Below, in pieces: positions 7,077 through 59,933 of a DNA stretch of 64,000 nt. Position numbers and translations under genes: made by a program. Every line of letters begins with the position of its first letter. Position 1 is the first letter of the stretch. The DNA comes from an uncultured Gemmatimonadota bacterium. GTDB lineage: Bacteria > JAAXHH01. Under the pieces are notes generated by a model, which ran no database searches, had not been told where the DNA came from, and saw only the letters and a list, made by a program, of their open reading frames with translations. Location: NCBI GenBank assembly GCA_951812955.1, contig OX638340.1, positions 3,296,001-3,360,000 of the forward strand. Direction: 5' to 3'.

Positions 7077-8090
7077 ATGACCACGGAAAACGTGAAATCA
7101 CCGGACGACATCAAGGCCATCCACGACCGAATATACGAGCAGAGCGTCTTCGTCGACCGGCTGGTATCGGAAATCGGCAAGGTGATCGTCGGTCAGCATT
7201 ACATGGTCGAACGCCTCCTGATCGGCCTGCTGACCAATGGGCACATTCTGCTCGAAGGCGTGCCGGGGCTGGCCAAGACCCTGGCCGTCAAGACCCTGGC
7301 GTCGACGGTCGCGGCACGGTTCCACCGCATTCAGTTCACGCCCGACCTGCTCCCCGCCGATCTGACGGGCACCATGATCTACGAAGCGGGCAGCGGCGAG
7401 TTCATCGCCAAGAAGGGACCGATCTTCGCCCATCTCATCCTCGCGGACGAAATCAACCGTGCGCCGGCGAAAGTGCAGAGCGCCCTACTGGAGGCCATGC
7501 AGGAGCACCAGGTCACCATAGGCGACGAGACCTTTCCGCTCGAGGACCCCTTCCTGGTGCTCGCCACGCAGAATCCCATCGAGCAGGAAGGCACCTACCC
7601 CCTTCCGGAGGCCCAGGTCGACCGATTCATGCTCAAGCTGACCACGACCTATCCCCGCAAGGAAGAGGAACTCGAGATCCTGAACCGCATGACGACCGGC
7701 GAGTCGGTTGAAGTGGAACAGGTCGTGTCGCTGGAGGATATCGTCCGTGCGAGATCGATCATCAACCAGGTCTACATGGACGAGAAGATCAAGCAATACA
7801 TCGTCGACCTCGTCTTCGCGACCCGCAACCCGGAGGACTACGGCGAGCTCACCGACATCCGCGACCTGGTGGAGTACGGCGCCTCGCCCCGTGCGACGAT
7901 CTACCTGGCGACGGCCGCGCGCGCGCACGCCTTCCTGCGCCGCAGAGGCTATGTCACCCCGGAGGACGTAAAGTCGATCGGAATGGACGTGTTGCGCCAC
8001 CGCGTCATCGTTACCTACGAGGCGGAGGCGGAAGACATGACCGCGGAACAAATCCTTCAGCGCGTGTTCGACTGTGTAGAGATCCCTTGA
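7077..8090 (+). CDS. MoxR-family AAA+ ATPase
   Basis: GVPGLAKT Walker A, LADEINRAP Walker B/sensor, 337 aa. Confidence 0.9.
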   Translation: MTTENVKSPDDIKAIHDRIYEQSVFVDRLVSEIGKVIVGQHYMVERLLIGLLTNGHILLEGVPGLAKTLAVKTLASTVAARFHRIQFTPDLLPADLTGTMIYEAGSGEFIAKKGPIFAHLILADEINRAPAKVQSALLEAMQEHQVTIGDETFPLEDPFLVLATQNPIEQEGTYPLPEAQVDRFMLKLTTTYPRKEEELEILNRMTTGESVEVEQVVSLEDIVRARSIINQVYMDEKIKQYIVDLVFATRNPEDYGELTDIRDLVEYGASPRATIYLATAARAHAFLRRRGYVTPEDVKSIGMDVLRHRVIVTYEAEAEDMTAEQILQRVFDCVEIP

Positions 8091-8968
8091 TACCCAGGCA
8101 GATTATCCAGAAAATCCGGCAGATCGAGATCCGGACCAAGCATCTCGTGAACGACGTGTTCAGCGGAGAGTACCACAGCGTCTTCAAGGGCCGCGGCATG
8201 GAATTCGCCGAGGTGCGCGAATACGAGCCGGGAGACGAGATCCGATCGATCGACTGGAACGTCACCGCCCGGCTGGGACGTCCCTATGTCAAGCGGTTCA
8301 TCGAGGAAAGGGAACTGACGGTCATTCTCATGGCCGACGTCAGCGCATCGGGCCATTTCGGCACGGCGAGCCAGATGAAGAGCGAGATTACCGCGGAAAT
8401 CTGCGCGCTGCTTGCTTTTGCGGCGATCCAGAACAATGACCGTGTCGGCCTCCTCATGTTCACCGATCAGATCGAGAAGTTCATCCCGCCGAAGAAGGGC
8501 CGGACCCATATTCTGCGGGTCATCCGGGAAGTGCTGTACACCCGGCCCGATCACACCGGCACCGACATCACACAAGCGCTCGATTACCTGAACCGGTTGC
8601 TGACGCGCAGGAGCATAGTCTTCATCATATCGGATTTTCTCGATTCGGACTATGCCAAGCCGCTGCGGGTGGCCAGCAAACGGCATGACGTGGTCGCCGT
8701 AACGATCACGGACCCGAGGGAACTCGATCTGCCCGGCATCGGGCTGATCGAACTGCAGGACGCGGAATCGGGAGAGGAAGCGCTCATCGACACCACCGAC
8801 GCCGCATGGCGCAAGCAGTATGCCGAGTACAACGAGGCCATTCGTGAAGACCGCGACCGGCAATTCAGGGTGACCGGCGTGGACGCAATCCATATCCGTA
8901 CGGACGAACCCTACATCGATCCGCTGATGCAGTTCTTCAAGCTGCGCGAACGCAAAATCGCGCGGTGA
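8087..8968 (+). CDS. DUF58 (vWA-like) protein partner of MoxR
   Basis: EYEPGDEIRSIDWNVTAR and LMADVSASG motifs. Start overlaps the moxR stop (ATGA). Confidence 0.85.
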   Translation: MIPRQIIQKIRQIEIRTKHLVNDVFSGEYHSVFKGRGMEFAEVREYEPGDEIRSIDWNVTARLGRPYVKRFIEERELTVILMADVSASGHFGTASQMKSEITAEICALLAFAAIQNNDRVGLLMFTDQIEKFIPPKKGRTHILRVIREVLYTRPDHTGTDITQALDYLNRLLTRRSIVFIISDFLDSDYAKPLRVASKRHDVVAVTITDPRELDLPGIGLIELQDAESGEEALIDTTDAAWRKQYAEYNEAIREDRDRQFRVTGVDAIHIRTDEPYIDPLMQFFKLRERKIAR

Positions 8969-9118
8969 ATCGAAAACGGCGCGCCGGACCTGTCCGCGGG
9001 ATCGGGTCGAAAGGCAACAAAGGCTTGCATTTCATCACTTTGTGCGGTAAATTAGGTTACTTTGAAAACCGCTGTCCGTTTCGCGCGAAACTTGCGGGAA
9101 AGGCACTGGGAGCCTGAC

Positions 9119-10066
9119 GTGATAGAAGTAAAGAATCTGACCAAGAAATACGGTAATTTCACCGCGGTCCGGGACGTGAGTTTCCAGGTCGAAAAGGGCG
9201 AGATTCTCGGATTCCTCGGGCCGAACGCCGCGGGCAAGACCACTACCATGCGGGTGCTGACCTGCTTCATGCCCGCGACGGCCGGCACCGCCCGGGTGGC
9301 AGGGTTCGACACGTTCAACCAATCCCTCGAGGTGCGCCGCAGGGTGGGATACCTCCCGGAAAACGTACCCCTTTACCTGGACATGCGGGTCCGTCCATAC
9401 CTGGAGTTTATCGCCCGGATCAAGGATATCCCTTCCCGCGATCGCAAAAAGGCCGTCAACCGCGTAATCGAGCTGGCCGCGCTGGAAGATGTCGAAAACC
9501 GGATTATCGGACATTGCTCCAAGGGATTTCGCCAACGGGTGGGACTGGCCCAGGCGCTGATACACGACCCCGACGTCCTGATCCTGGACGAGCCGACCAA
9601 CGGATTGGACCCGAAGCAGATCAACGAGGTCCGTGAGGTGATCAGGAGCCTGTCCGGGGACCATACCATTATTCTCAGCAGTCATATTCTGCCCGAAGTG
9701 AGCAAGACCTGCGAGCGTGTGCTCATTATCGACCGGGGACGGATCGTGGCCGGGGACACGCCGGCCAACCTGGACGCGCGGCTGCGGGGTTCGCAATCCA
9801 TCTCGGTACAAATCCGCGGTCCGGTCAAGGAAGTGATGGACCTGCTGAAGAAGAAGGATGGCGTGGTGGACGTGAAGACCAGGTCTTCACTCGGCGAAAG
9901 CCTCTGGCAATATGACATCGACATCATTCCCGGCAGGGATCTCCGTCCCGAGCTGGCATCGTCGGTGGTCGAAAACAACTGGGACCTCCTGGAACTCACC
10001 ACGGCCGGCATGAGCCTGGAAGAGATCTTCCTGGAGCTGACGACCCAGGAAGAGGAGGTATCCTGA
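9119..10066 (+). CDS. ABC transporter ATP-binding protein (GldA-like)
   Basis: GPNAAGKTT Walker A, LSGG-like CSKGFRQRV, ILDEPTNGLD. GTG start after a GGGAG RBS; the ORF-track start at 9062 is TTG and less likely. Confidence 0.85.
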   Translation: MIEVKNLTKKYGNFTAVRDVSFQVEKGEILGFLGPNAAGKTTTMRVLTCFMPATAGTARVAGFDTFNQSLEVRRRVGYLPENVPLYLDMRVRPYLEFIARIKDIPSRDRKKAVNRVIELAALEDVENRIIGHCSKGFRQRVGLAQALIHDPDVLILDEPTNGLDPKQINEVREVIRSLSGDHTIILSSHILPEVSKTCERVLIIDRGRIVAGDTPANLDARLRGSQSISVQIRGPVKEVMDLLKKKDGVVDVKTRSSLGESLWQYDIDIIPGRDLRPELASSVVENNWDLLELTTAGMSLEEIFLELTTQEEEVS

Positions 10067-35939: not shown

Positions 35940-36012
35940 GCGGGAATAGCTCAGTTGGTAGAGCATCAGCTTCCCAAGCTGAGGGTCGCGGGTTCGAGCC
36001 CCGTTTCCCGCC
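35940..36012 (+). tRNA. tRNA-Gly (anticodon CCC)
   Basis: Manual cloverleaf: acceptor GCGGGAA/TTCCCGC, D-arm GCTC-AGTTGGTA-GAGC, anticodon loop TTCCCAA, T-arm GCGGG-TTCGAGC-CCCGT. No encoded CCA. Confidence 0.85.
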
Positions 36013-51670: not shown

Positions 51671-52207
51671 ATGGCTGGCGGACCGCGCGAGGCGCAAGGA
51701 CCATTCGTACTCTGGCTCACCGGTCTGTCGGGATCGGGAAAGAGTACCATCGCGGACCGGATCTACACGAGACTTAAAGAAAAAGGCATCAAGGCGGAGC
51801 GGCTGGATGGCGACGAAATCCGGGCCGTTTTCCCCGACACGGGTTTCGACAGAGCGGGACGCATGGCCCATATCGCCCGCGTGGGTTATCTGGCGTCGGT
51901 CCTTGAGCGGAACGGCATCTGTACGATCGTGTCCCTCATTTCACCTTACAGGGAAGCCAGGGACGAAGTCAGGCAACGCTGCGACCGGTTCATCGAAGTG
52001 CACGTTTCCACTCCCCTGGAAGTGTGCGAGGAACGGGACGTTAAGGGACTGTACGCAAAATCGAGACGGGGCGAAATCATTGGTTTTACCGGAATAGACG
52101 ATCCCTACGAAGAACCGGTAGAGCCGGAACTGCATATCGACACCTCGCGGCTGACGGTCGCGGATGCCGAGGCGGCGGTCATGAACCACATTGCGTCCTA
52201 TCTGTAG
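51671..52207 (+). CDS. cysC: Adenylyl-sulfate kinase (standalone)
   Basis: LTGLSGSGKST P-loop, DGD, 178 aa. Confidence 0.9.
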   Translation: MAGGPREAQGPFVLWLTGLSGSGKSTIADRIYTRLKEKGIKAERLDGDEIRAVFPDTGFDRAGRMAHIARVGYLASVLERNGICTIVSLISPYREARDEVRQRCDRFIEVHVSTPLEVCEERDVKGLYAKSRRGEIIGFTGIDDPYEEPVEPELHIDTSRLTVADAEAAVMNHIASYL

Positions 52208-52370
52208 ACGCATGTTTTTAAGGTGCACCGCGTTTCCGGCGAGAAGATTACTTGTGGAAGACATGAAGAAAGCGCTGGGGAAAAGGCGCTAGGGAAGAAA
52301 ACGCTAAAGAAGAAGGCACTGAGTTTCAAAAACTACCCGTTCATTCTGTCAGCCGGTTACTGATCCGTCC

Positions 52371-53276
52371 ATGCCCAAGTATTCCATTTCCCACCTGATG
52401 CAGCTCGAAGCCGAGAGCATCCACGTCATGCGCGAAGTCGTCGCCGAATTCGAACGCCCGGTGATGCTGTATTCGGTCGGGAAGGATTCCTCGGTCATGC
52501 TGCACCTCGCGCGCAAAGCCTTCCATCCGGAGAAACTGCCCTTCCCGCTCATGCACGTGGATACGGGGTACAAGTTCGAGGAGATGTACGACTTTCGAAG
52601 GCGCATGGCCGAGGAATACGACGCGGACCTGATCGTCTACCGCAACGAGGAAGCCATCTCCGACGGCGCCAATCCCTACGACCTGGGCACGCAGCGTTGC
52701 TGCGGCCTGTTGAAGACGCAGGCCCTGCTGGATGGGCTTCGGGCGGGACGTTTCGACGCCGCGCTGGGCGGCGCACGGCGAGAAGAGGAGAAGTCGCGAG
52801 CCAAGGAGCGGTTTTTCTCTTTCAGGGACCGTTTCGGCCAGTGGGACCCGAAAAACCAGCGGCCCGAACTGTGGAACCTGTACAACTGCCGCATCGGCCA
52901 GGAGGAGTCCATCCGGGTGTTTCCGCTCTCCAACTGGACCGAACTGGACATCTGGATGTACATTCACCGGGAAAACATCCCCGTCGTTCCCCTGTATTTT
53001 GCCAGGGAGCGCCCGGTCGTGATCCGCGGGGACCAACTGATACCCGTGGAGGGACAGGCCCGCATCCTTCCCGGCGAGACGCCGCGGTCCATGGTCTGCC
53101 GTTTCCGCACGCTGGGCTGCTCACCCTGCACGGGCGCCGTCAAGTCCACCGCATCTTCCGTCGAAGAGATCATCGAGGAAATGATGGTGGAACGCATTTC
53201 CGAACGTTCCACGCGCATCATCGATCACGACCAGGAAGGATCGATGGAACTGAAGAAGCGGGAAGGCTATTTCTAA
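52371..53276 (+). CDS. cysD: Sulfate adenylyltransferase subunit 2
   Basis: PAPS-reductase fold [12 protein letters not shown]. Confidence 0.9.
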
Positions 53277-53323
53277 AGGCGATCCGATCGCCGGCCCCGA
53301 TCCGAACGCCGGCCCATGGTGAA

Positions 53324-55237
53324 ATGACCGACATTCAGACATTCCTCGCGCAGAACGAAGAAAAGGAATTGCTCCGCTTCAGTACGGCGGGTAGCGTGGA
53401 CGACGGCAAATCCACGCTGATCGGCCGGCTGCTGGCCGACTCGAAGAACATCTACGAGGACCACCTCGCCTCGCTCAAGAAGATGGTCCGCCAGGACGAG
53501 GCGCCCGATCTGGCCATGTTGCTGGACGGTCTCAAGGCCGAACGGGAGCAGGGCATCACCATCGACGTGGCCTACCGGTATTTTTCGACGCCACGGCGGA
53601 AGTTCATCATCGCCGACACGCCGGGCCACGAACAATACACCCGAAACATGGCGACCGGCGCGTCCAGCGCCAACCTGGCCATCGTGCTGGTCGACGCGCG
53701 ACACGGGATCCTGACGCAGACCCGGCGCCACGCTTTCATCACCTCTCTGCTGGGCATTCATCACCTCGTGGTAGCCGTGAACAAAATGGACATGGTGGAT
53801 TTCGACGAACAGATCTTCGACGACATCCGCCGGGCGTTCCTGGATTACGCCGCCAAGTTAAACGTGAGCGACATCCGCATCGTGCCGGTCAGCGCGCTCC
53901 TCGGCGACAACGTGGTGGAAAGGAGCAGCCGCACGCCATGGTATCACGGACAGACCGTGCTGGACATCCTGGAGGACGTGCAGTTCCTGACCGACCGCAA
54001 CCTGGTCGACCTGCGCTTTCCGGTGCAGTACATCATTCGACCCCGCCAGAAGGAGCGATACTACGCGGGATCGGTGTTGTCCGGCGTGGTGCGACCGGGA
54101 GACGAGGTGCTGGTTCTCCCGGGCCAGAACCGCACCCGGGTGAAGTCCGTCTCCAGCTACGACGGCGACCTGGACGAGGCCTACCCGCCCATGTCCGTTT
54201 CGCTTCAGTTGGAAGACGAAGTGGATGTAAGCCGGGGTGACATGATCGTTCATCCGAAGAACCTGCCCCACGTGGATCGGCGGTTCGAGGCGATGTTGGT
54301 CTGGATGGACGAGACCCCCATGGATCCTTCCCGTCACTACCTGATCAAGCAAACCACCCAGACCGCCCGCGCGAGCATCGACCACGTCGACTACCGCATC
54401 GACGTGGATACCCTGCACAAAGTCGGCGTTCCCCACCTTTCGCTCAATGAGATCGGCCGGGTCGCGCTGACTTCCAACCGGGCACTCTTCCACGACGCGT
54501 ACCAGAACAACCGGCTGACCGGCAGTTTCATCCTGGTGGATTATCTTTCCAACAACACCGTTGCCGCGGGCATGATCATCGATCGGCTGCCGGAAGACCG
54601 CGTGCCCATGGACGTTGACGCCGATTCCGAACCCAGGGCCTCGACTGCGCGCAGATCCAGCCTGGTGGATCCGGATCACCGTACGGAACGGTATGGGCAG
54701 AAACCGTGTACGATCTGGATCACGGGCCTGGTGGGCTCGGGAAAATCTTCCGTCACTTACGGCCTGGAGAAAGTACTGTACGAGGAAGGTTATTCGGTGG
54801 TCGTGCTGGACAGTTCGGTCGTTCGCAGCGGCCTCAGCCGCGACCTCGGCTTTTCGGCGGCGGACCAGGCGGAGAACCTCCGGCGGGTATCCGAAACCGC
54901 GCGCATGCTCAACGACACGGGACTCATCGTCCTCGCCTCTTTCATCTCTCCGAGCGAAGACGGCCGCCGCCAGGTAGCTGAACGCATTGGAACGGACCGG
55001 TACGTGGAGGTCTTCGTCGACGCGCCTATGGCCTGGTGCCGAAAGCATGACGCCACGGGGTGTTACGAGCAGTCCGACCGCGGCCTGCTGCGCAATCTCG
55101 CGGGTGTGGACTATCCCTACGAAAAGCCCCGCGATCCGGCGGTGACCGTCTCGTCTGAGACCGATCCGGTTGACCGGTCGGTCGATCGCATCGTTGCTTT
55201 GATGAAAGAAAAAGGTTACCTGCTGCCCGGGCGGTAG
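53324..55237 (+). CDS. cysN: Bifunctional sulfate adenylyltransferase subunit 1 / APS kinase (CysNC)
   Basis: GTPase [17 protein letters not shown] and NKMD, followed by a C-terminal APS-kinase domain [14 protein letters not shown] at 53324; the ORF-track start is too far upstream. Confidence 0.9.
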
Positions 55238-55362: not shown

Positions 55363-56781
55363 TCACCACCCCGCCAGTCCCATGATCCAGTAGGCCGTCT
55401 GGGCGACGATGAAGAGCAGGATGAAGGCGATGGCCAGAGGCATAAGACCGCTGACGACGGTCCACTTCACGCTCTTGGTTTCGCGGTAGACCGTCCACAT
55501 GGTCGTGGAACACGGATTGTGCAACAGGGAAAAGAGCATGAGGCAGACGGCGGTGAGGAGCGTCCATCCCTCCTGGACCACCAGGAGTTGCCGCAGTTCC
55601 GCCATCGTATCCAGTTCAATCATCATCCCGGCGCCCGTATAGGCCATGATGATGGTCGGGACCACGATTTCGTTGGCCGGGATGGCGATGATGTAGGCCA
55701 GCAGGATCACGCCGTCCAGACCGATGGCCCGTCCCACGGGTTCCAGCCACTGTGAAACCCACACCGTCAGGCTCTGACCCCCGGCGTAAATGTTACTCAG
55801 CAGCCAGATCGCGCCGCCCGCCGGCACGGCCATGACCACCGCGCGCCAGAGGACGAATATCGTCCGGTCTATGAGCGAGGTGTACAGCACGCGAAGAATA
55901 CTGGGACGCCGGTAGGGCGGAAGTTCCAGCGTGAAACTGCTGGCTTCGCCCCGCAGGAAGGACCGGGACAGGATGGCCGACACTAGCAGGGTCGTCGCGG
56001 CGCCGATCAGGACGATCAGAACCAGGGACCCGGCCGCGGCCATGGCCGCGAAGGCCGGCGGGAAGGCAGCCGCCACGAAGAGGGTGGCCAGTATGATCAG
56101 CGTGGGCCACCTGCCGTTGCAGGGCATGAAATTATTGGTGAGGATGGCGATCAGCCGCTCACGGGGCGAATCGATGACCCGGCAGGCCACGACCCCGGCC
56201 GCGTTGCAACCCAGGCCCATACTCATGGTGAGGGCCTGCTTGCCGTGGGCGCCGGCTTTCTTGAACAGCGCGTCGACGTTGAACGCCACGCGGGGAAGGT
56301 ACCCCAGGTCCTCCAGTATGGTGAAAATGGGGAAGAATATGGCCATGGGAGGAAGCATAACGGCGATCACCCAGGCCAGTCCCCTGTAGACGCCGTGCCA
56401 GATGAACCCGGTGACCCACCAGGGCATGCCCAGGGCTTCGAACAATGCGACGCCCTGCGCGCCCAGCCAGAAAAGCCCTTCGGCCAGCATGGCGGAGGGC
56501 ACGTTCGCCCCCGAAATCGTGATCCAGAAGACGACGGCCAGGAGCAGGGCCATGAAGGGCAGTCCCCAGATCCTCGAGGTAACGATGCGGTCCAGCTTCT
56601 GGTCCCAGGGATAAGAAGCCGTTTCGCCGGTTTGAACCACCTTCCGGGTGATGGCCTCGGCGTCCTGGTAGATGGCCTCCACGATTTCGTCGCGATACGA
56701 TCCGTCCAGGTCCCTCTGCATTTCTTCCACCCGGCCCAGGATGTCCTCGCCGGTGGAAGGTGTTGCCGTCGTTTTGCTCAT
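55363..56781 (-). CDS. feoB: FeoB C-terminal polytopic membrane (gate) domain as a separate ORF
   Basis: 472 aa, about 10 TM, FeoB_C / nucleoside-recognition-like segments. Confidence 0.8.
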   Translation of the reverse strand: MSKTTATPSTGEDILGRVEEMQRDLDGSYRDEIVEAIYQDAEAITRKVVQTGETASYPWDQKLDRIVTSRIWGLPFMALLLAVVFWITISGANVPSAMLAEGLFWLGAQGVALFEALGMPWWVTGFIWHGVYRGLAWVIAVMLPPMAIFFPIFTILEDLGYLPRVAFNVDALFKKAGAHGKQALTMSMGLGCNAAGVVACRVIDSPRERLIAILTNNFMPCNGRWPTLIILATLFVAAAFPPAFAAMAAAGSLVLIVLIGAATTLLVSAILSRSFLRGEASSFTLELPPYRRPSILRVLYTSLIDRTIFVLWRAVVMAVPAGGAIWLLSNIYAGGQSLTVWVSQWLEPVGRAIGLDGVILLAYIIAIPANEIVVPTIIMAYTGAGMMIELDTMAELRQLLVVQEGWTLLTAVCLMLFSLLHNPCSTTMWTVYRETKSVKWTVVSGLMPLAIAFILLFIVAQTAYWIMGLAGW

Positions 56782-57587
56782 GTCGTTTGATCCCCGGCGG
56801 GTAGTTCCGCCTGGACGCCCATCCGGCTGAATTCGCCCTGTTCAAGAGCCTGGCGCACCCGGTAGTCGCCGTCGAGCAGCCTGAAGGCGATCCAGCGGGG
56901 GTTCGGAAGGTCAGGGTAGGATGCGTGCAGCATGCCCGTGATCGTATCCACGGTCCGGTCTAGTTCGTCGTTGCCCGTTATGCGCCGGGGCGCGTTCTTG
57001 ATCGTACCCTGGATCACGTCGGCGACGGTGCGCATCAACAGGCCCAGCCCCTCCTTCTTCCTGGCCGAAACCGGCACGACCGGCACGCCCAGTTCCCGTG
57101 ACAGGGCGCGGTGATCCACTGAGATCCCCTTGCGTTCGGCTTCGTCCATCAGATTCAGGCAGACTACCGTTTTTTCCGTGATCTCCAGCACCTGGAGCAC
57201 CAGGTTGAGATTGCGCTCGAGCATGGTGGCATCGACGACGGCCAACGTGCAGTCAGGCCTGCCGAAGAGGATGAAGTCCCTGGCGATCTCCTCGTCGATG
57301 GACGCCGAGAGCAGGGAGTAGGTCCCGGGCAGGTCGATCATCTTGAACCTTCTGCCGTTGAACTCGAATCCTCCCTCGGCCCGGTTCACCGTCTTTCCGG
57401 GCCAGTTCCCCGTATGCTGCTTCAGTCCGGTCAACGCGTTGAAGACCGTGCTCTTGCCCACGTTCGGGTTCCCTGCCAGGGCGATGACATAGTCCCACCG
57501 GTCCAGCGTAATACCCATCTGTACCAGGTTCTCCTGCAGCGCGCACGACGCGCAGTCGTGTCCGGGCGGTGCGGAATCGATGCTCAT
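56778..57587 (-). CDS. feoB: FeoB N-terminal GTPase domain as a separate ORF
   Basis: IALAGNPNVGKST G1, DLPG G3, NLMD G4. Stop overlaps the membrane-domain start by 4 nt. The true start may be the internal MGITLDRW. Confidence 0.8.
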   Translation of the reverse strand: MSIDSAPPGHDCASCALQENLVQMGITLDRWDYVIALAGNPNVGKSTVFNALTGLKQHTGNWPGKTVNRAEGGFEFNGRRFKMIDLPGTYSLLSASIDEEIARDFILFGRPDCTLAVVDATMLERNLNLVLQVLEITEKTVVCLNLMDEAERKGISVDHRALSRELGVPVVPVSARKKEGLGLLMRTVADVIQGTIKNAPRRITGNDELDRTVDTITGMLHASYPDLPNPRWIAFRLLDGDYRVRQALEQGEFSRMGVQAELPAGDQTT

Positions 57588-58600
57588 ACGGTGATCTCCC
57601 GTTCCTGCCGCGTTCCTTGGTCAATTAAGATCAGGTCGGACTGTTCCCGGCGCAGCGCGATCATCGTACCGCGCACCCGGTAAGCCGTGGGATCGCTGAA
57701 GGCGCTTTGCATGACGCGCTCGACACGGACGCCGGGCGTGAGGCCCAGGTCCAGGAACCTTCGGCGGGTCAAGCCCTGGCAGGCCGGTGACAGCGCGACG
57801 ACCCGGCCCTGCTCGCCGTGTTTCAGCGCCGTGAGCGGCACGCCTGACGGTTCGACCCGGTCAATGGGCGCCTCCCGCACGGATATGTTTGCCGCGACGA
57901 CCGGAGCCAGCACGTGCTCGTTTTCCGGTGTGCCTATGACCACCCGTACGGATGAGATGTCCAGGATCGTGATCACCATGCCGGGATGGAGATCCTCGGC
58001 GATGATCTGGGCGTACACTTCCGGTGGTTCGTCCTCGATATGCACGATCTGCGCCGGAACGCCCGCCGGCCATTCGACGAGTTTCTGGCTCTTGATCTCC
58101 TTCATGTCGCCCGCGGCGTTCGGGATCGGATCTCCCTGGGGATCGAAGGCGGGGTGGCCCATGTCGGCGTCCATCTTGTCGACCTGCGCCTCGCTCACCG
58201 TGTGTTCCAACTGGTGGGCATGGGCATGTATTTTCTCCCGGGGCACGGAGGTCTCGTCGGCCAGGTACCGCTCGAACAGGCGATGCGCCCTGACGATCTG
58301 GAGCGCCCAGCGATGGCCGGCGGCCGTGAGGCGCATCCCCTGGCCCGTCACGGCTACCAGATCCATCTGCGCCATTCGGTCGACCAGGATCAGCGTGTGA
58401 CCGGTCGAAGTGCCCAGGGTATTGGAAAGGGATTCCACGGACGCCGGCCGTCCGTCGTGCTGGAACTGGTGCAGATGGGCCAGGGCGTCCTCGACGGCCT
58501 GGCGGGATTGCACCCACCTCCTGCGCCGGTAGCGCCAGTACAGTCCGTATTGGGGCAGGAAGAGCACCCCGAGGGCAATCAGCACGATGATACCGGTCAT
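57584..58600 (-). CDS. DtxR-family metalloregulator fused to two FeoA domains with an N-terminal TM helix
   Basis: TM IIVLIALGVLFL, DtxR HTH and metal-binding region (HRLFERYL, HxxH), then two FeoA/SH3-like modules. Stop overlaps the feoB G-domain start. Confidence 0.65.
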   Translation of the reverse strand: MTGIIVLIALGVLFLPQYGLYWRYRRRRWVQSRQAVEDALAHLHQFQHDGRPASVESLSNTLGTSTGHTLILVDRMAQMDLVAVTGQGMRLTAAGHRWALQIVRAHRLFERYLADETSVPREKIHAHAHQLEHTVSEAQVDKMDADMGHPAFDPQGDPIPNAAGDMKEIKSQKLVEWPAGVPAQIVHIEDEPPEVYAQIIAEDLHPGMVITILDISSVRVVIGTPENEHVLAPVVAANISVREAPIDRVEPSGVPLTALKHGEQGRVVALSPACQGLTRRRFLDLGLTPGVRVERVMQSAFSDPTAYRVRGTMIALRREQSDLILIDQGTRQEREITV

Positions 58601-59334
58601 GAACCTGCCCGCCCATCGTTTTTCGTTTCCTCGGCCGGTACGCTTTCGACCAGGACGCTGCGGGCGACCTGGTGCCCGACGTGTTGTTCCTCACCGCCAA
58701 CACGCAGAAACATGGGTCCATCGAAGGGCTCTTTGCTCAGTACTTCCACGACGTTTTCCGGCCGGAGGCCGAGTTTCGCAAGATAACGGAGCAGGGCCGG
58801 ATCCGTGTCTTTCACGCGGCGAACAATCACAGTGCGACCGGGTTCCATGTCGGACAGCCTGTCGTGGTTGGTACTGGCAATGGATAGATCTTTCGCCGGT
58901 ATGGGCGAGCCGTGAGGGTCCGTGGTCGGGTGCCCCAGCATGGCATCGATCTTGTCCTCGAATTCTTCGGAGATCACGTGTTCGAGACGCTCCGCTTCCG
59001 CGTCCACCTGGTCCCACGTAAATCCAAGCGCTTCAGCCATGTACACCTCCAGCAACCGGTGATGGCGAATGATCTCGAGCGCGATCTTTCTTCCGGCGTC
59101 GGTCAGCCTGATCGCCTGGTAGGGCCGGTGTTCGACCAGGCCCGACTCCGACAGCCTCTTCATCATGTTGGTGACGGAGGCGGCCGATACGCCCATCCGG
59201 TCCGCTATGGCATTGGTCGACGCGGCTACTGCGTTCTCCTGCAACTTGTAGATGGCCTTCAGGTAATCTTCCGTGGCGGGCGTGGGCATGAGTATATCCG
59301 AAAACCGGTCTCGACTTTGCATGGAGTGTGCCAT
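58597..59334 (-). CDS. DtxR/IdeR-family metal-dependent transcriptional regulator with C-terminal FeoA/SH3-like domain
   Basis: DYLKAIYKL HTH, HHRLLEVYM, FeoA-like C-terminus; an alternative start MPTPATEDYL sits at 59289. Confidence 0.75.
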   Translation of the reverse strand: MAHSMQSRDRFSDILMPTPATEDYLKAIYKLQENAVAASTNAIADRMGVSAASVTNMMKRLSESGLVEHRPYQAIRLTDAGRKIALEIIRHHRLLEVYMAEALGFTWDQVDAEAERLEHVISEEFEDKIDAMLGHPTTDPHGSPIPAKDLSIASTNHDRLSDMEPGRTVIVRRVKDTDPALLRYLAKLGLRPENVVEVLSKEPFDGPMFLRVGGEEQHVGHQVARSVLVESVPAEETKNDGRAGS

Positions 59335-59340
59335 CGATTT

Positions 59341-59356
59341 TTTAGTTGAGACTAAA
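59341..59356. promoter_or_regulatory. Palindrome TTTAGT-TGAG-ACTAAA, candidate DtxR-family operator
   Basis: Sits 7 bp upstream of the DtxR gene start in an AT-rich divergent promoter region. Confidence 0.35.
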
Positions 59357-59546
59357 TATATAGTTAAATAATATATGTGTCAATAATTAGATTTGAAAAA
59401 AGTCTAAGCCGGTCCGGTCGGCGCATGGCAAATCCATCCGCGGAACATGCGTCGAGCCGAAACAATACCCTTGTTTCAGGTGGAATACCGCCCTTATATT
59501 CGGATTGCCGAAGCGCAATAAACCGATTTTATGCGACCCTGGAGCC

Positions 59547-59933
59547 ATGATGGCCGGCCATATCGTCCTCGTCGTGGTGGACGACCTGTTTTTCTCTTCG
59601 AAGATCGGTGAGACCATACGTCAACTGGGCGGCGAACCACGTTTCGCGGCGGAAGCGGGCGAGATCCCGGATGATCCCGAATGCGGTCCGCCGTCCGCGA
59701 TCATCGTGGACCTCGATCTCACGCGGACCGACGCCGTGGACCTGGTATCTCTCCTGAAAGACCGTGAAGCGACCAGGGATATACCGATGATGGCGTACGG
59801 CCGGCATACGCGGCCCGAAGCCTTCGTGCGCGCCCGGGAGGCGGGCTGCGAACGGGCCGTGCCGAGGTCGGAGTTCGTAAAGAGGCTGCCGGAATTCATC
59901 GAATCCTGTTGGCGGCATGGCCGCGACGCATGA
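59547..59933 (+). CDS. Single-domain CheY-like receiver protein
   Basis: VLVVVDD, IIVDLDL (phospho-Asp position), MMAYG; GGAG RBS before ATGATG. Confidence 0.5.
   Translation: MMAGHIVLVVVDDLFFSSKIGETIRQLGGEPRFAAEAGEIPDDPECGPPSAIIVDLDLTRTDAVDLVSLLKDREATRDIPMMAYGRHTRPEAFVRAREAGCERAVPRSEFVKRLPEFIESCWRHGRDA

Follow-up and report, generated by a model that had tools for sequence, protein, structure and literature searches.

Can a protein with the fold of a metal-dependent transcription factor serve as a subunit of a metal transporter instead? The question is raised by an operon of an uncultured Gemmatimonadota bacterium (GenBank assembly GCA_951812955.1), located in a 64 kb stretch of contig OX638340.1 (positions 3,296,001 to 3,360,000 of the forward strand) that is referred to here as the window and numbered from its first letter. 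Between 55363 and 59383 on the minus strand lie four co-directional open reading frames (ORFs) in the order dtxR1, dtxR2, feoB-N, and feoB-C. The first encodes an ordinary soluble member of the DtxR/MntR family, the second a membrane-anchored relative that ends in a FeoA domain, and the last two the separate halves of the transporter FeoB. All three junctions are ATGA start/stop overlaps. We read the operon as encoding a metal-repressed, three-component Feo-type importer of a divalent metal (Fe2+ or Mn2+) together with its own repressor, in which DtxR2 would be the metal-sensing FeoA subunit, and we put the probability of this reading at about 0.55.

The proposed mechanism runs as follows. A metal-loaded dimer of DtxR1 would bind the palindrome TTTAG-N6-CTAAA over the -10 and +1 positions and repress all four genes including its own, a step that the sequence comparisons strongly indicate. 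On derepression the four ORFs are translated in a coupled fashion, as the three ATGA overlaps in the sequence show. DtxR2 would be inserted into the inner membrane by a signal-anchor helix with a conserved FWPxxGL motif and a basic RWRRxR cluster. Its C-terminal FeoA domain is predicted to dock on the free-standing G-protein half of FeoB (NFeoB), and the docking would hold NFeoB at the membrane beside the separate permease, in place of the covalent link of an ordinary FeoB. The DtxR core of DtxR2 appears to have kept its metal ligands and dimer interface and to have lost the conserved basic surface that reads DNA. As a cytoplasmic metal sensor, DtxR2 could then alter the engagement of NFeoB by its FeoA/SH3 domains, giving post-translational feedback on transport. 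In its fullest form the proposal is that a protein with the DtxR fold has ceased to be a transcription factor and become an allosteric subunit of a transporter, tethered to the membrane and gated by metal, whose FeoA domain recruits NFeoB to the permease and through which cytoplasmic metal would shut the importer off. This form is put forward tentatively, at rather less than even odds.

The comparisons draw on 85 related genomic loci, of which L001–L005 were obtained by exact look-ups and L006–L085 represent one genome per species. All loci were searched with the four window proteins using tblastn. They span at least eight phyla, namely Gemmatimonadota, Chloroflexota, Acidobacteriota, Planctomycetota, Verrucomicrobiota, Zixibacteria, Calditrichota, and Armatimonadota, and the dtxR2 family has >5000 database matches and 335 clusters (50% identity) at E ≤ 1e-30. 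A feoB gene lies directly downstream of dtxR2 in 84 of the 85 loci, the remaining one being truncated by a contig end. In 57 loci a canonical dtxR1 immediately precedes dtxR2; in the other 28 it is not adjacent.

A probable soluble repressor and its predicted operator

DtxR1 (58597–59334, minus strand; 245 aa as the longest ORF) has the domains of a canonical soluble DtxR/MntR-family protein: a winged helix-turn-helix (wHTH), a dimerisation and metal-binding domain, and an SH3-like domain. The corresponding Pfam matches are PF01325 (1e-19, 70.9 bits), PF02742 (2.7e-31), and PF04023 (5e-19). Three domains, metal ligands, a conserved helix, and a palindromic operator are all features shared with M. 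tuberculosis MntR (5zr6), IdeR (1fx7/1u8r), and DR2539 (8pvt). The best NCBIfam match is a Thermus-type MntR model with 223 bits against a cut-off of 350, followed by the DtxR model with 115.7 against 290, and no equivalog cut-off is passed. A first-pass annotation of this DNA described two tandem DtxR-FeoA fusion regulators, which overstates the case for this gene, an ordinary DtxR/MntR whose FeoA/SH3-like tail belongs to the canonical three-domain architecture.

The start of DtxR1 has a bearing on how its upstream region is read. Orthologues are called at 230 aa, and the stretch 59289–59334 is variable and contains non-triplet indels in relatives. The longest-ORF start, ATG 59334, is therefore probably wrong and translation probably begins at Met16 (59289), giving a protein of 230 aa. 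The 45 nt up to Met16 are then likely to be 5'-untranslated region.

A sigma-70-type promoter was recognised at 59355–59383 on the minus strand, with TTGACA (59383–59378) and TATATT (59360–59355) separated by a 17-nt spacer. It matches the consensus at 11 of 12 positions and is the best such site between 55000 and 59700. The operator-like palindrome TTTAGT-N4-ACTAAA, in general form TTTAG-N6-CTAAA (59341–59356, unstranded), overlaps the -10 hexamer and the predicted +1 near 59348. A palindrome 7 bp upstream of the distal DtxR gene had already been proposed as a candidate operator. That proposal gains from the conservation of the site and from its overlap with a near-consensus promoter, although the spacing needs correction, as the palindrome ends 6 nt from ATG 59334 and about 50 nt upstream of Met16.

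Taken within the window, the palindrome is not beyond chance: one match is found against 0.22 expected, at least one occurs in 21 of 100 shuffles, and no further copies are present with up to two mismatches. It is the related loci that single it out. In 890 kb of their sequence TT[TA]AG-N6-CT[AT]AA occurs 51 times, and 45 of these instances fall within -200 to +30 of the operon's first gene, a zone that makes up about 2% of the sequence and would hold roughly one instance by chance. The motif stands at the operon start in 43 of the 85 loci, made up of 38 of the 57 that begin with dtxR1 and 5 of the 28 that begin with dtxR2. Related loci typically have TTGACA-17-TAnAAT upstream of dtxR1 followed directly by ATTTAGGnnnnCCTAAAT. 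Gemmatimonadota relatives keep the -35 hexamer, the -10, and TTTAG...CTAAAAA, with the -10 region reading AACTATAT, while the flanks vary. The motif resembles the core of the DtxR/IdeR box. The palindrome is thus a conserved operator-like site, to which binding of DtxR1 is predicted.

In many loci, among them L025, L027, L028, L053, L056, and further Chloroflexota loci, the main palindrome is followed some 10 nt downstream by another operator-like element, ATTTAGCC or GATTAGCC, which adjoins or overlaps the start codon of dtxR1. This points to operators in tandem or to a site extending into the coding region.

Which of the two DtxR-type proteins reads this site can be judged from 56 genomes that carry both genes. 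Overall DtxR2 is the more conserved of the two, with a mean column entropy of 1.31 bits vs. 1.50 bits for DtxR1. In the recognition helix the order is reversed: DtxR1 has 0.79 bits and a conserved (A/S)PASVTGM, whereas DtxR2 has 2.19 bits. The segment that spans helix 2 to the wing carries a net charge of +3.3 in DtxR1, whereas in DtxR2 it is -1.5 (paired Wilcoxon test, p = 2e-10). PF01325, the wHTH model that DtxR1 matches, finds nothing in the first 96 residues of DtxR2 even at E ≤ 10. As an operator shared across phyla fits the conserved helix of DtxR1 and not the variable helix of DtxR2, the soluble protein is the better candidate for its reader. DtxR1 is likely the repressor of the operon, and DtxR2 has probably stopped binding DNA.

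The ligand set of DtxR1 also bears on the metal that is sensed and, by extension, transported. Ligand-capable residues D23, H92, E96, D111, E115, E118, and H119 occupy the positions of DtxR residues 10, 79, 83, 98, 102, 105, and 106, and H92, E96, E118, and H119 are invariant in all 56 genomes. It may be that the substrate is Mn2+ rather than Fe2+. The transporter would then import manganese, as FeoB2 of P. gingivalis does, and the operon would be part of an MntR regulon, which would fit either a transport or a repressor role for DtxR2. In the window protein Asp stands at the Met10 position of DtxR, Asp at His98, and Glu at Cys102, so that all ligands are oxygen or nitrogen donors. In the study of P. 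gingivalis MntR (PgMntR), the oxygen-donor pattern is that of the manganese-specific BsMntR, as opposed to the Met/Cys pattern of iron-sensing DtxR (PMC4805248). The best NCBIfam model is MntR, the nearest neighbours in structure and sequence are M. tuberculosis MntR and D. radiodurans DR2539, the closest characterised operon, PgMntR-FeoB2, transports Mn, and one related locus adjoins VIT1 and ABC-3 metal genes. Against this, both FeoB halves score best against the ferrous-iron FeoB models of NCBIfam, DtxR1 has Cys at the 102 position in 20 of the 56 genomes, a mixed Fe/Mn pattern like that of PgMntR, and DtxR2 mostly has His there. The ligand pattern of DtxR1, the MntR-type best matches, and the precedent of FeoB2 together make manganese a serious contender beside iron, with chances that fall short of one in two.

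A membrane-anchored relative with a FeoA domain

DtxR2, also termed tmDtxR-FeoA (57584–58600, minus strand; 338 aa), is a membrane-anchored, PgMntR-like protein with twin SH3 domains. Hydropathy and conservation place a transmembrane (TM) helix at residues 2–22 (58535–58597). The N-terminus has a single hydrophobic segment (residues 2–20) followed by RYRRRRW, and the helix and basic cluster recur in 24 of 24 aligned homologues (44–87% identity) and in 56 of 56 genomes with the dtxR1-dtxR2 pair. This sets the protein apart from the soluble PgMntR-like subfamily. The anchor has the consensus LFWPxxGLxxRWRRxRxLxSR, in which P16 and G19 are at least 90% conserved. The concern that the helix might be an artefact of start choice is removed by the ATGA coupling to the upstream stop codon and by the presence of the hydrophobic helix and RWRRxR in all homologues. 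A cleavable signal peptide is disfavoured, as the basic cluster comes after the hydrophobic core. Because the charges follow the helix, the anchor should be oriented N-out/C-in with the bulk of the protein in the cytoplasm.

Behind the anchor are a wHTH-like fold seen in the predicted structure (residues 33–91; 58328–58504), a dimerisation and metal-binding domain (92–161; 58118–58327; PF02742, 4e-21), a DtxR-type SH3 domain (175–243; 57872–58078), and a FeoA domain (254–326; 57623–57841; PF04023, 5.1e-20, 71.8 bits). The PF02742 domain is thus followed by two SH3/FeoA domains, the first of which scores 18.3 bits against the Pfam FeoA model, below the cut-off of 23. An AlphaFold2 model built on the family alignment has a mean predicted local distance difference test score of 84.7. 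It comprises a helix at 2–13, a kink at P16/G19, a second helix at 20–30, a winged helix at 33–91, the DtxR core at 93–146, and SH3-like barrels at 182–243 and 264–327. Foldseek ranks M. tuberculosis MntR 5zr6 first among its structural matches (E 3e-15, target TM-score 0.85), ahead of IdeR, SloR, ScaR, and DtxR; in sequence, the nearest match of the core is DR2539, a Mn sensor of D. radiodurans. The first barrel aligns to the C-terminal domain of MntR. The last matches solved FeoA structures, namely 2h3j, 2k5f, 2k4y, and 7r7b, the latter being the FeoA domain of B. fragilis NFeoAB (E 2.6e-7). DtxR2 therefore has the fold common to canonical DtxR, IdeR, and MntR proteins (target TM-scores 0.7–0.9); beyond this it has a TM helix and an extra FeoA domain, and its HTH is degenerate.

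The first-pass annotation had assigned this gene a TM helix, DtxR-like DNA-binding and metal-binding domains, and two FeoA modules. The helix, the metal-binding domain, and one FeoA domain hold up; the first module is instead a DtxR-type SH3 domain, and the DNA-binding domain is recognisable only as a fold. It also reported that no free-standing feoA is present, and in agreement with this no free-standing FeoA-like ORF was found in the 64 kb by a search of limited sensitivity with family-built domain hidden Markov models and phmmer with E. coli FeoA. In place of a stand-alone FeoA there is a FeoA domain fused to the C-terminus of an anchored protein of 338 aa. As this is the only bona fide FeoA domain found in the operon and in the window and stands immediately upstream of feoB, the first-pass suggestion that the anchored protein supplies FeoA is upheld as the most likely assignment.

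The metal-binding residues of DtxR2 are strictly kept. E37, D38, H106, E110, H125, E132, and H133 are invariant in 56 of 56 genomes, as are the ligand positions H187, E189, D190, and E191 of the first SH3 domain. The closest characterised system, PgMntR (PG1044) with FeoB2 (PG1043), also has a metal/dimerisation domain and two SH3/FeoA domains in a protein encoded directly upstream of a FeoB homologue in an operon (PMC4805248). The predicted ligands of PgMntR are D19, H85, E89, H104, C108, E111, H112, D132, H166, D169, and E170 (PMC4805248). Using the residue numbers of that study, these map one-to-one onto invariant residues of DtxR2 at an offset of ~21, the length of the added anchor. PgMntR is soluble, with a DNA-binding domain from residue 13, whereas DtxR2 is anchored and has a variable acidic surface without a PF01325 match. 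The window further differs in having a separate canonical DtxR and a split feoB.

A rival to a transport role is that DtxR2 could be a genuine membrane-bound repressor acting at the operator or another site while tethered beside FeoB, with DtxR1 as a redundant or metal-distinct second repressor. The wHTH fold is predicted with confidence and superposes on DNA-bound IdeR and MntR structures, helix 1 keeps its ED pair, and none of the metal ligands is lost. PgMntR shares the twin-FeoA architecture and does bind the promoter of its own operon; once its last FeoA domain is removed, it loses both Mn2+ and DNA binding (PMC4805248).

Membrane-anchored transcription factors such as ToxR and CadC are also known. 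These carry a cytoplasmic winged helix on a single TM helix, a periplasmic sensor, and a conserved basic DNA-binding surface. DtxR2 differs on each count other than the anchored winged helix, as it has essentially no periplasmic residues, a cytoplasmic sensor, and a variable, acidic HTH surface. Its recognition helix is the least conserved element of the protein (2.19 bits against 1.31 overall, with an HTH net charge of -1.5), and the operator is nearly identical across phyla where this reading helix is not. A DNA-binding member of the family can be seen in P0356, a soluble twin-FeoA relative that keeps the canonical helix KPASATGM and scores 61.5 bits against PF01325. A better-preserved HTH might be looked for where dtxR1 is not adjacent, but the surface is acidic and variable there too. 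On balance a repressor role for DtxR2 appears unlikely, and the first-pass proposal of a tethered repressor coupling transport activity directly to repression is not supported by a recognition surface of this kind.

A further possibility is that DtxR2 acts as an anti-repressor, forming a heterodimer with DtxR1 through the dimerisation domain and sequestering it at the membrane in response to metal flux, without contacting DNA. Both proteins have PF02742, their overlapping ORFs are translated together, the two genes are found side by side in 57 of 85 loci, and the dimer helix of DtxR2 is extremely conserved (entropy 0.48 bits). The two are only 27% identical, however, and DtxR2 has identical features in the 28 loci without an adjacent DtxR1, which makes this a decidedly improbable role.

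Several observations nonetheless weigh against DtxR2 as a metal-sensing FeoA subunit. The wHTH fold is kept with high predicted confidence and the protein may have residual or lineage-specific DNA binding at the membrane. In PgMntR, which does bind DNA, the second FeoA domain is needed for folding, metal binding, and DNA binding (PMC4805248). The second FeoA domain of DtxR2 could by analogy be structural rather than an adaptor for FeoB. Only 5 of the 28 loci with no dtxR1 alongside have the operator motif. Members of the family can also do without the TM helix, given that a soluble variant with a degenerate HTH (P0316) precedes split feoB in L087, and anchored variants of DtxR2 also precede fused feoB.

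P0316 is a relative of DtxR2 whose lack of a TM helix is confirmed by in-frame stops upstream. Among family representatives of about 300–325 aa, some likewise have no TM helix, carry a degenerate HTH of the 'EDALKH' type, and precede split feoB. The loss of a canonical HTH and the gain of the anchor would then be separate events. The occurrence of both anchored DtxR2 with fused FeoB and an unanchored variant with split FeoB indicates that anchor and split are separable, and therefore that the anchor is not merely a compensation for the split.

FeoB in two polypeptides

FeoB-N (56778–57587, minus strand; 269 aa) is a stand-alone NFeoB in which the GTPase domain is joined to the larger part of the helical domain. 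It matches PF02421 (FeoB_N) at 8.8e-62, and residues 34–246 align to residues 5–217 of E. coli NFeoB. The FeoB_Cyto match is just sub-threshold (23.0 bits vs. a cut-off of 23.4) because the helical domain is cut. FeoB-C (55363–56781, minus strand; 472 aa) is the permease half, with two Gate domains (3.5e-27) and FeoB_C (2.5e-13). Its residues 30–434 align to positions 210–594 of TIGR00437, and residues 29–317 to positions 240–519 of the E. coli-type model. The cut thus falls at about residue 240 of E. coli FeoB, inside the helical domain, which is completed by a cytosolic start of about 65 residues in FeoB-C. The first hydrophobic segment begins at residue 66, and the hydropathy profile shows about nine such segments in all. 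The two ORFs score 217.7 and 180.7 bits separately against TIGR00437, for which the equivalog cut-off for a single-polypeptide FeoB is 315.65. A PDB sequence search with the permease half gave no match at E ≤ 1e-5. The first-pass annotation had described FeoB as a G-domain of 269 aa and a membrane domain of 472 aa overlapping by 4 nt, and these ORFs were confirmed.

It had also left the split to be checked in relatives, where it is genuine and conserved. Two feoB ORFs are found in 73 loci and one fused ORF in 8, with contig ends cutting 3 more, so the split stands in 73 of the 81 informative loci and at the same protein position. Fused genes come from Armatimonadota, two Acidobacteria, one Planctomycetaceae, and one other Gemmatimonadota. 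Relative to the first ORF, the second is in frame 2 in 44 loci, in frame 1 in 18, and in frame 0 in 5, and in these last 5, where both share a frame, a stop codon separates the two. The spacing of the ORFs varies from -86 to +122 nt. The commonest junction, in 27 loci, is a 4-nt ATGA/GTGA overlap as in the window. Both halves are 92–94% identical to orthologues where the identity of the regulators is 81–89%, and neither shows decay. The top 120 database homologues of FeoB-N are all 231–290 aa long, and many are named 'FeoB small GTPase domain-containing protein' by NCBI.

An assembly or sequencing frameshift, a pseudogene, or a split repaired by programmed frameshifting, to which the 4-nt overlap and the treatment of TM-less FeoA-NFeoB sequences as possible sequencing errors in a published survey (PMC8980893) might point, can be dismissed, since the split recurs in independent assemblies of many phyla with own start codons for the two ORFs, in all three relative frames, and across intergenic gaps of up to 122 nt. 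This pattern of frames, gaps, and junctions excludes an assembly frameshift and a conserved recoding signal alike, the latter also through the 5 same-frame loci with a stop. The sequences thus indicate that the split gene yields two polypeptides.

In one locus the gene looks irregular. In the chromosome-level metagenome-assembled genome (MAG) OY843748.1 of a close relative (L007, about 7900–9320), the match to FeoB-C begins no earlier than query residue 159 and the feoB-N ORF is longer than usual, pointing to a local indel, a fault in the assembly, or decay of this copy.

FeoB-N has a 33-residue N-terminal extension that is absent from canonical FeoB and contains a CxxC motif at residues 12–15 (57543–57554). 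Within the motif GHDCxSC[A/P], all 22 sequences compared have C12 and C15, and C113 is at least 90% conserved. The extension could bind metal or act in redox chemistry, perhaps together with Cys273 of the DtxR2 FeoA domain, which is mostly conserved. The same CxxC extension also opens the feoB gene downstream of P0356, the soluble twin-FeoA DtxR with a canonical HTH (L086:1422–1547).

Two known arrangements are instructive by comparison. In the FeoAB fusions of B. fragilis and P. gingivalis, FeoA is likewise held near the G-domain of FeoB, with the difference that it is covalently joined to a full-length FeoB, whereas in the window it is carried by the anchored sensor and FeoB is cut in two (PMC8980893). 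The survey in that study excluded DtxR-fused FeoA and took NFeoB without TM segments as possible sequencing errors (PMC8980893). With the canonical FeoAB(C) systems of E. coli and V. cholerae, the window shares the G-domain, the helical domain, two Gate domains, FeoB_C, and a FeoA domain encoded upstream (PMC8749426). It departs from them in having FeoB as two polypeptides, the CxxC extension, no stand-alone FeoA, and no FeoC. Neither a split FeoB nor a DtxR-linked FeoA is mentioned in this survey of Feo evolution (PMC8749426). The 'split feo operon' of an H. pylori paper refers to feoA lying apart from feoB and not to a split FeoB, and an archaeal Fe/S paper (PMC8351635) makes no mention of DtxR. 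In the searched literature nothing relevant was found on split FeoB or on a membrane-anchored DtxR-FeoA.

Genomic neighbourhood and significance

The closest loci, at 81–89% identity, belong to Gemmatimonadota MAGs and share the flanking genes of the window, with cysD and cysNC to one side of the operon and PolX and endonuclease III to the opposite side. A sulfate-activation cluster adjoins the operon on the plus strand (51671–55237). It includes a stand-alone adenosine 5'-phosphosulfate (APS) kinase (51671–52207, plus strand), cysD (52371–53276, plus strand), and a fused cysN/cysC, placing two APS kinase domains side by side. The fused gene appears in the window as a TTG ORF of 846 aa and is probably over-extended, given that the fused gene of L001 is 637 aa. 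Divergent from the operon promoter is a 142-aa ORF (59505–59933, plus strand) with only a weak Response_reg match (19.5 bits vs. a cut-off of 30.2). At this position L001 and L002 have a 126-aa gene without a Pfam match, and there, just as in the window, PolX and endonuclease III come next.

In an Anaerolineae-type relative (L004/L005, 10984–13035), the cassette lies beside VIT1, of a metal efflux/storage family, and an ABC-3 transporter of the Mn/Zn type, which suggests a wider metal-homeostasis neighbourhood. An Rfam scan of the whole window returned a single match at the gathering threshold, the only tRNA gene of the window (35940–36012, plus strand), and revealed no riboswitch near the operon. 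Base composition around the locus is not unusual within the window, and an exact-sequence look-up of a window protein returned no record.

The action of FeoA on FeoB and the coupling between the G-domain and the permease are open questions for the most widespread bacterial Fe2+ importer (PMC8980893, PMC8749426). The cassette amounts to a natural dissection of this system, in which the G-protein and the permease are separate and FeoA is self-anchored and fused to a metal-binding module of known fold. With parts that can be expressed separately, the interaction surfaces, the need for proximity, and a possible metal feedback become testable. The architecture combines known kinds, DtxR/PgMntR and Feo, and is widespread in poorly studied phyla; no description of it was found in the literature searched. 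Published Feo surveys have filtered out such architectures or taken them for sequencing errors (PMC8980893).

On the sequence evidence it is probable that a transcription-factor fold has been repurposed as a transporter subunit. A DtxR-fold protein has apparently departed from transcription, and the label 'DtxR family Mn-dependent transcriptional regulator' that automated annotation gives to hundreds of such proteins may mislead as to function. If the reading is true, the operon would represent a three-component Feo system with a built-in sensor that is widespread in uncultured phyla and has been overlooked by Feo surveys.

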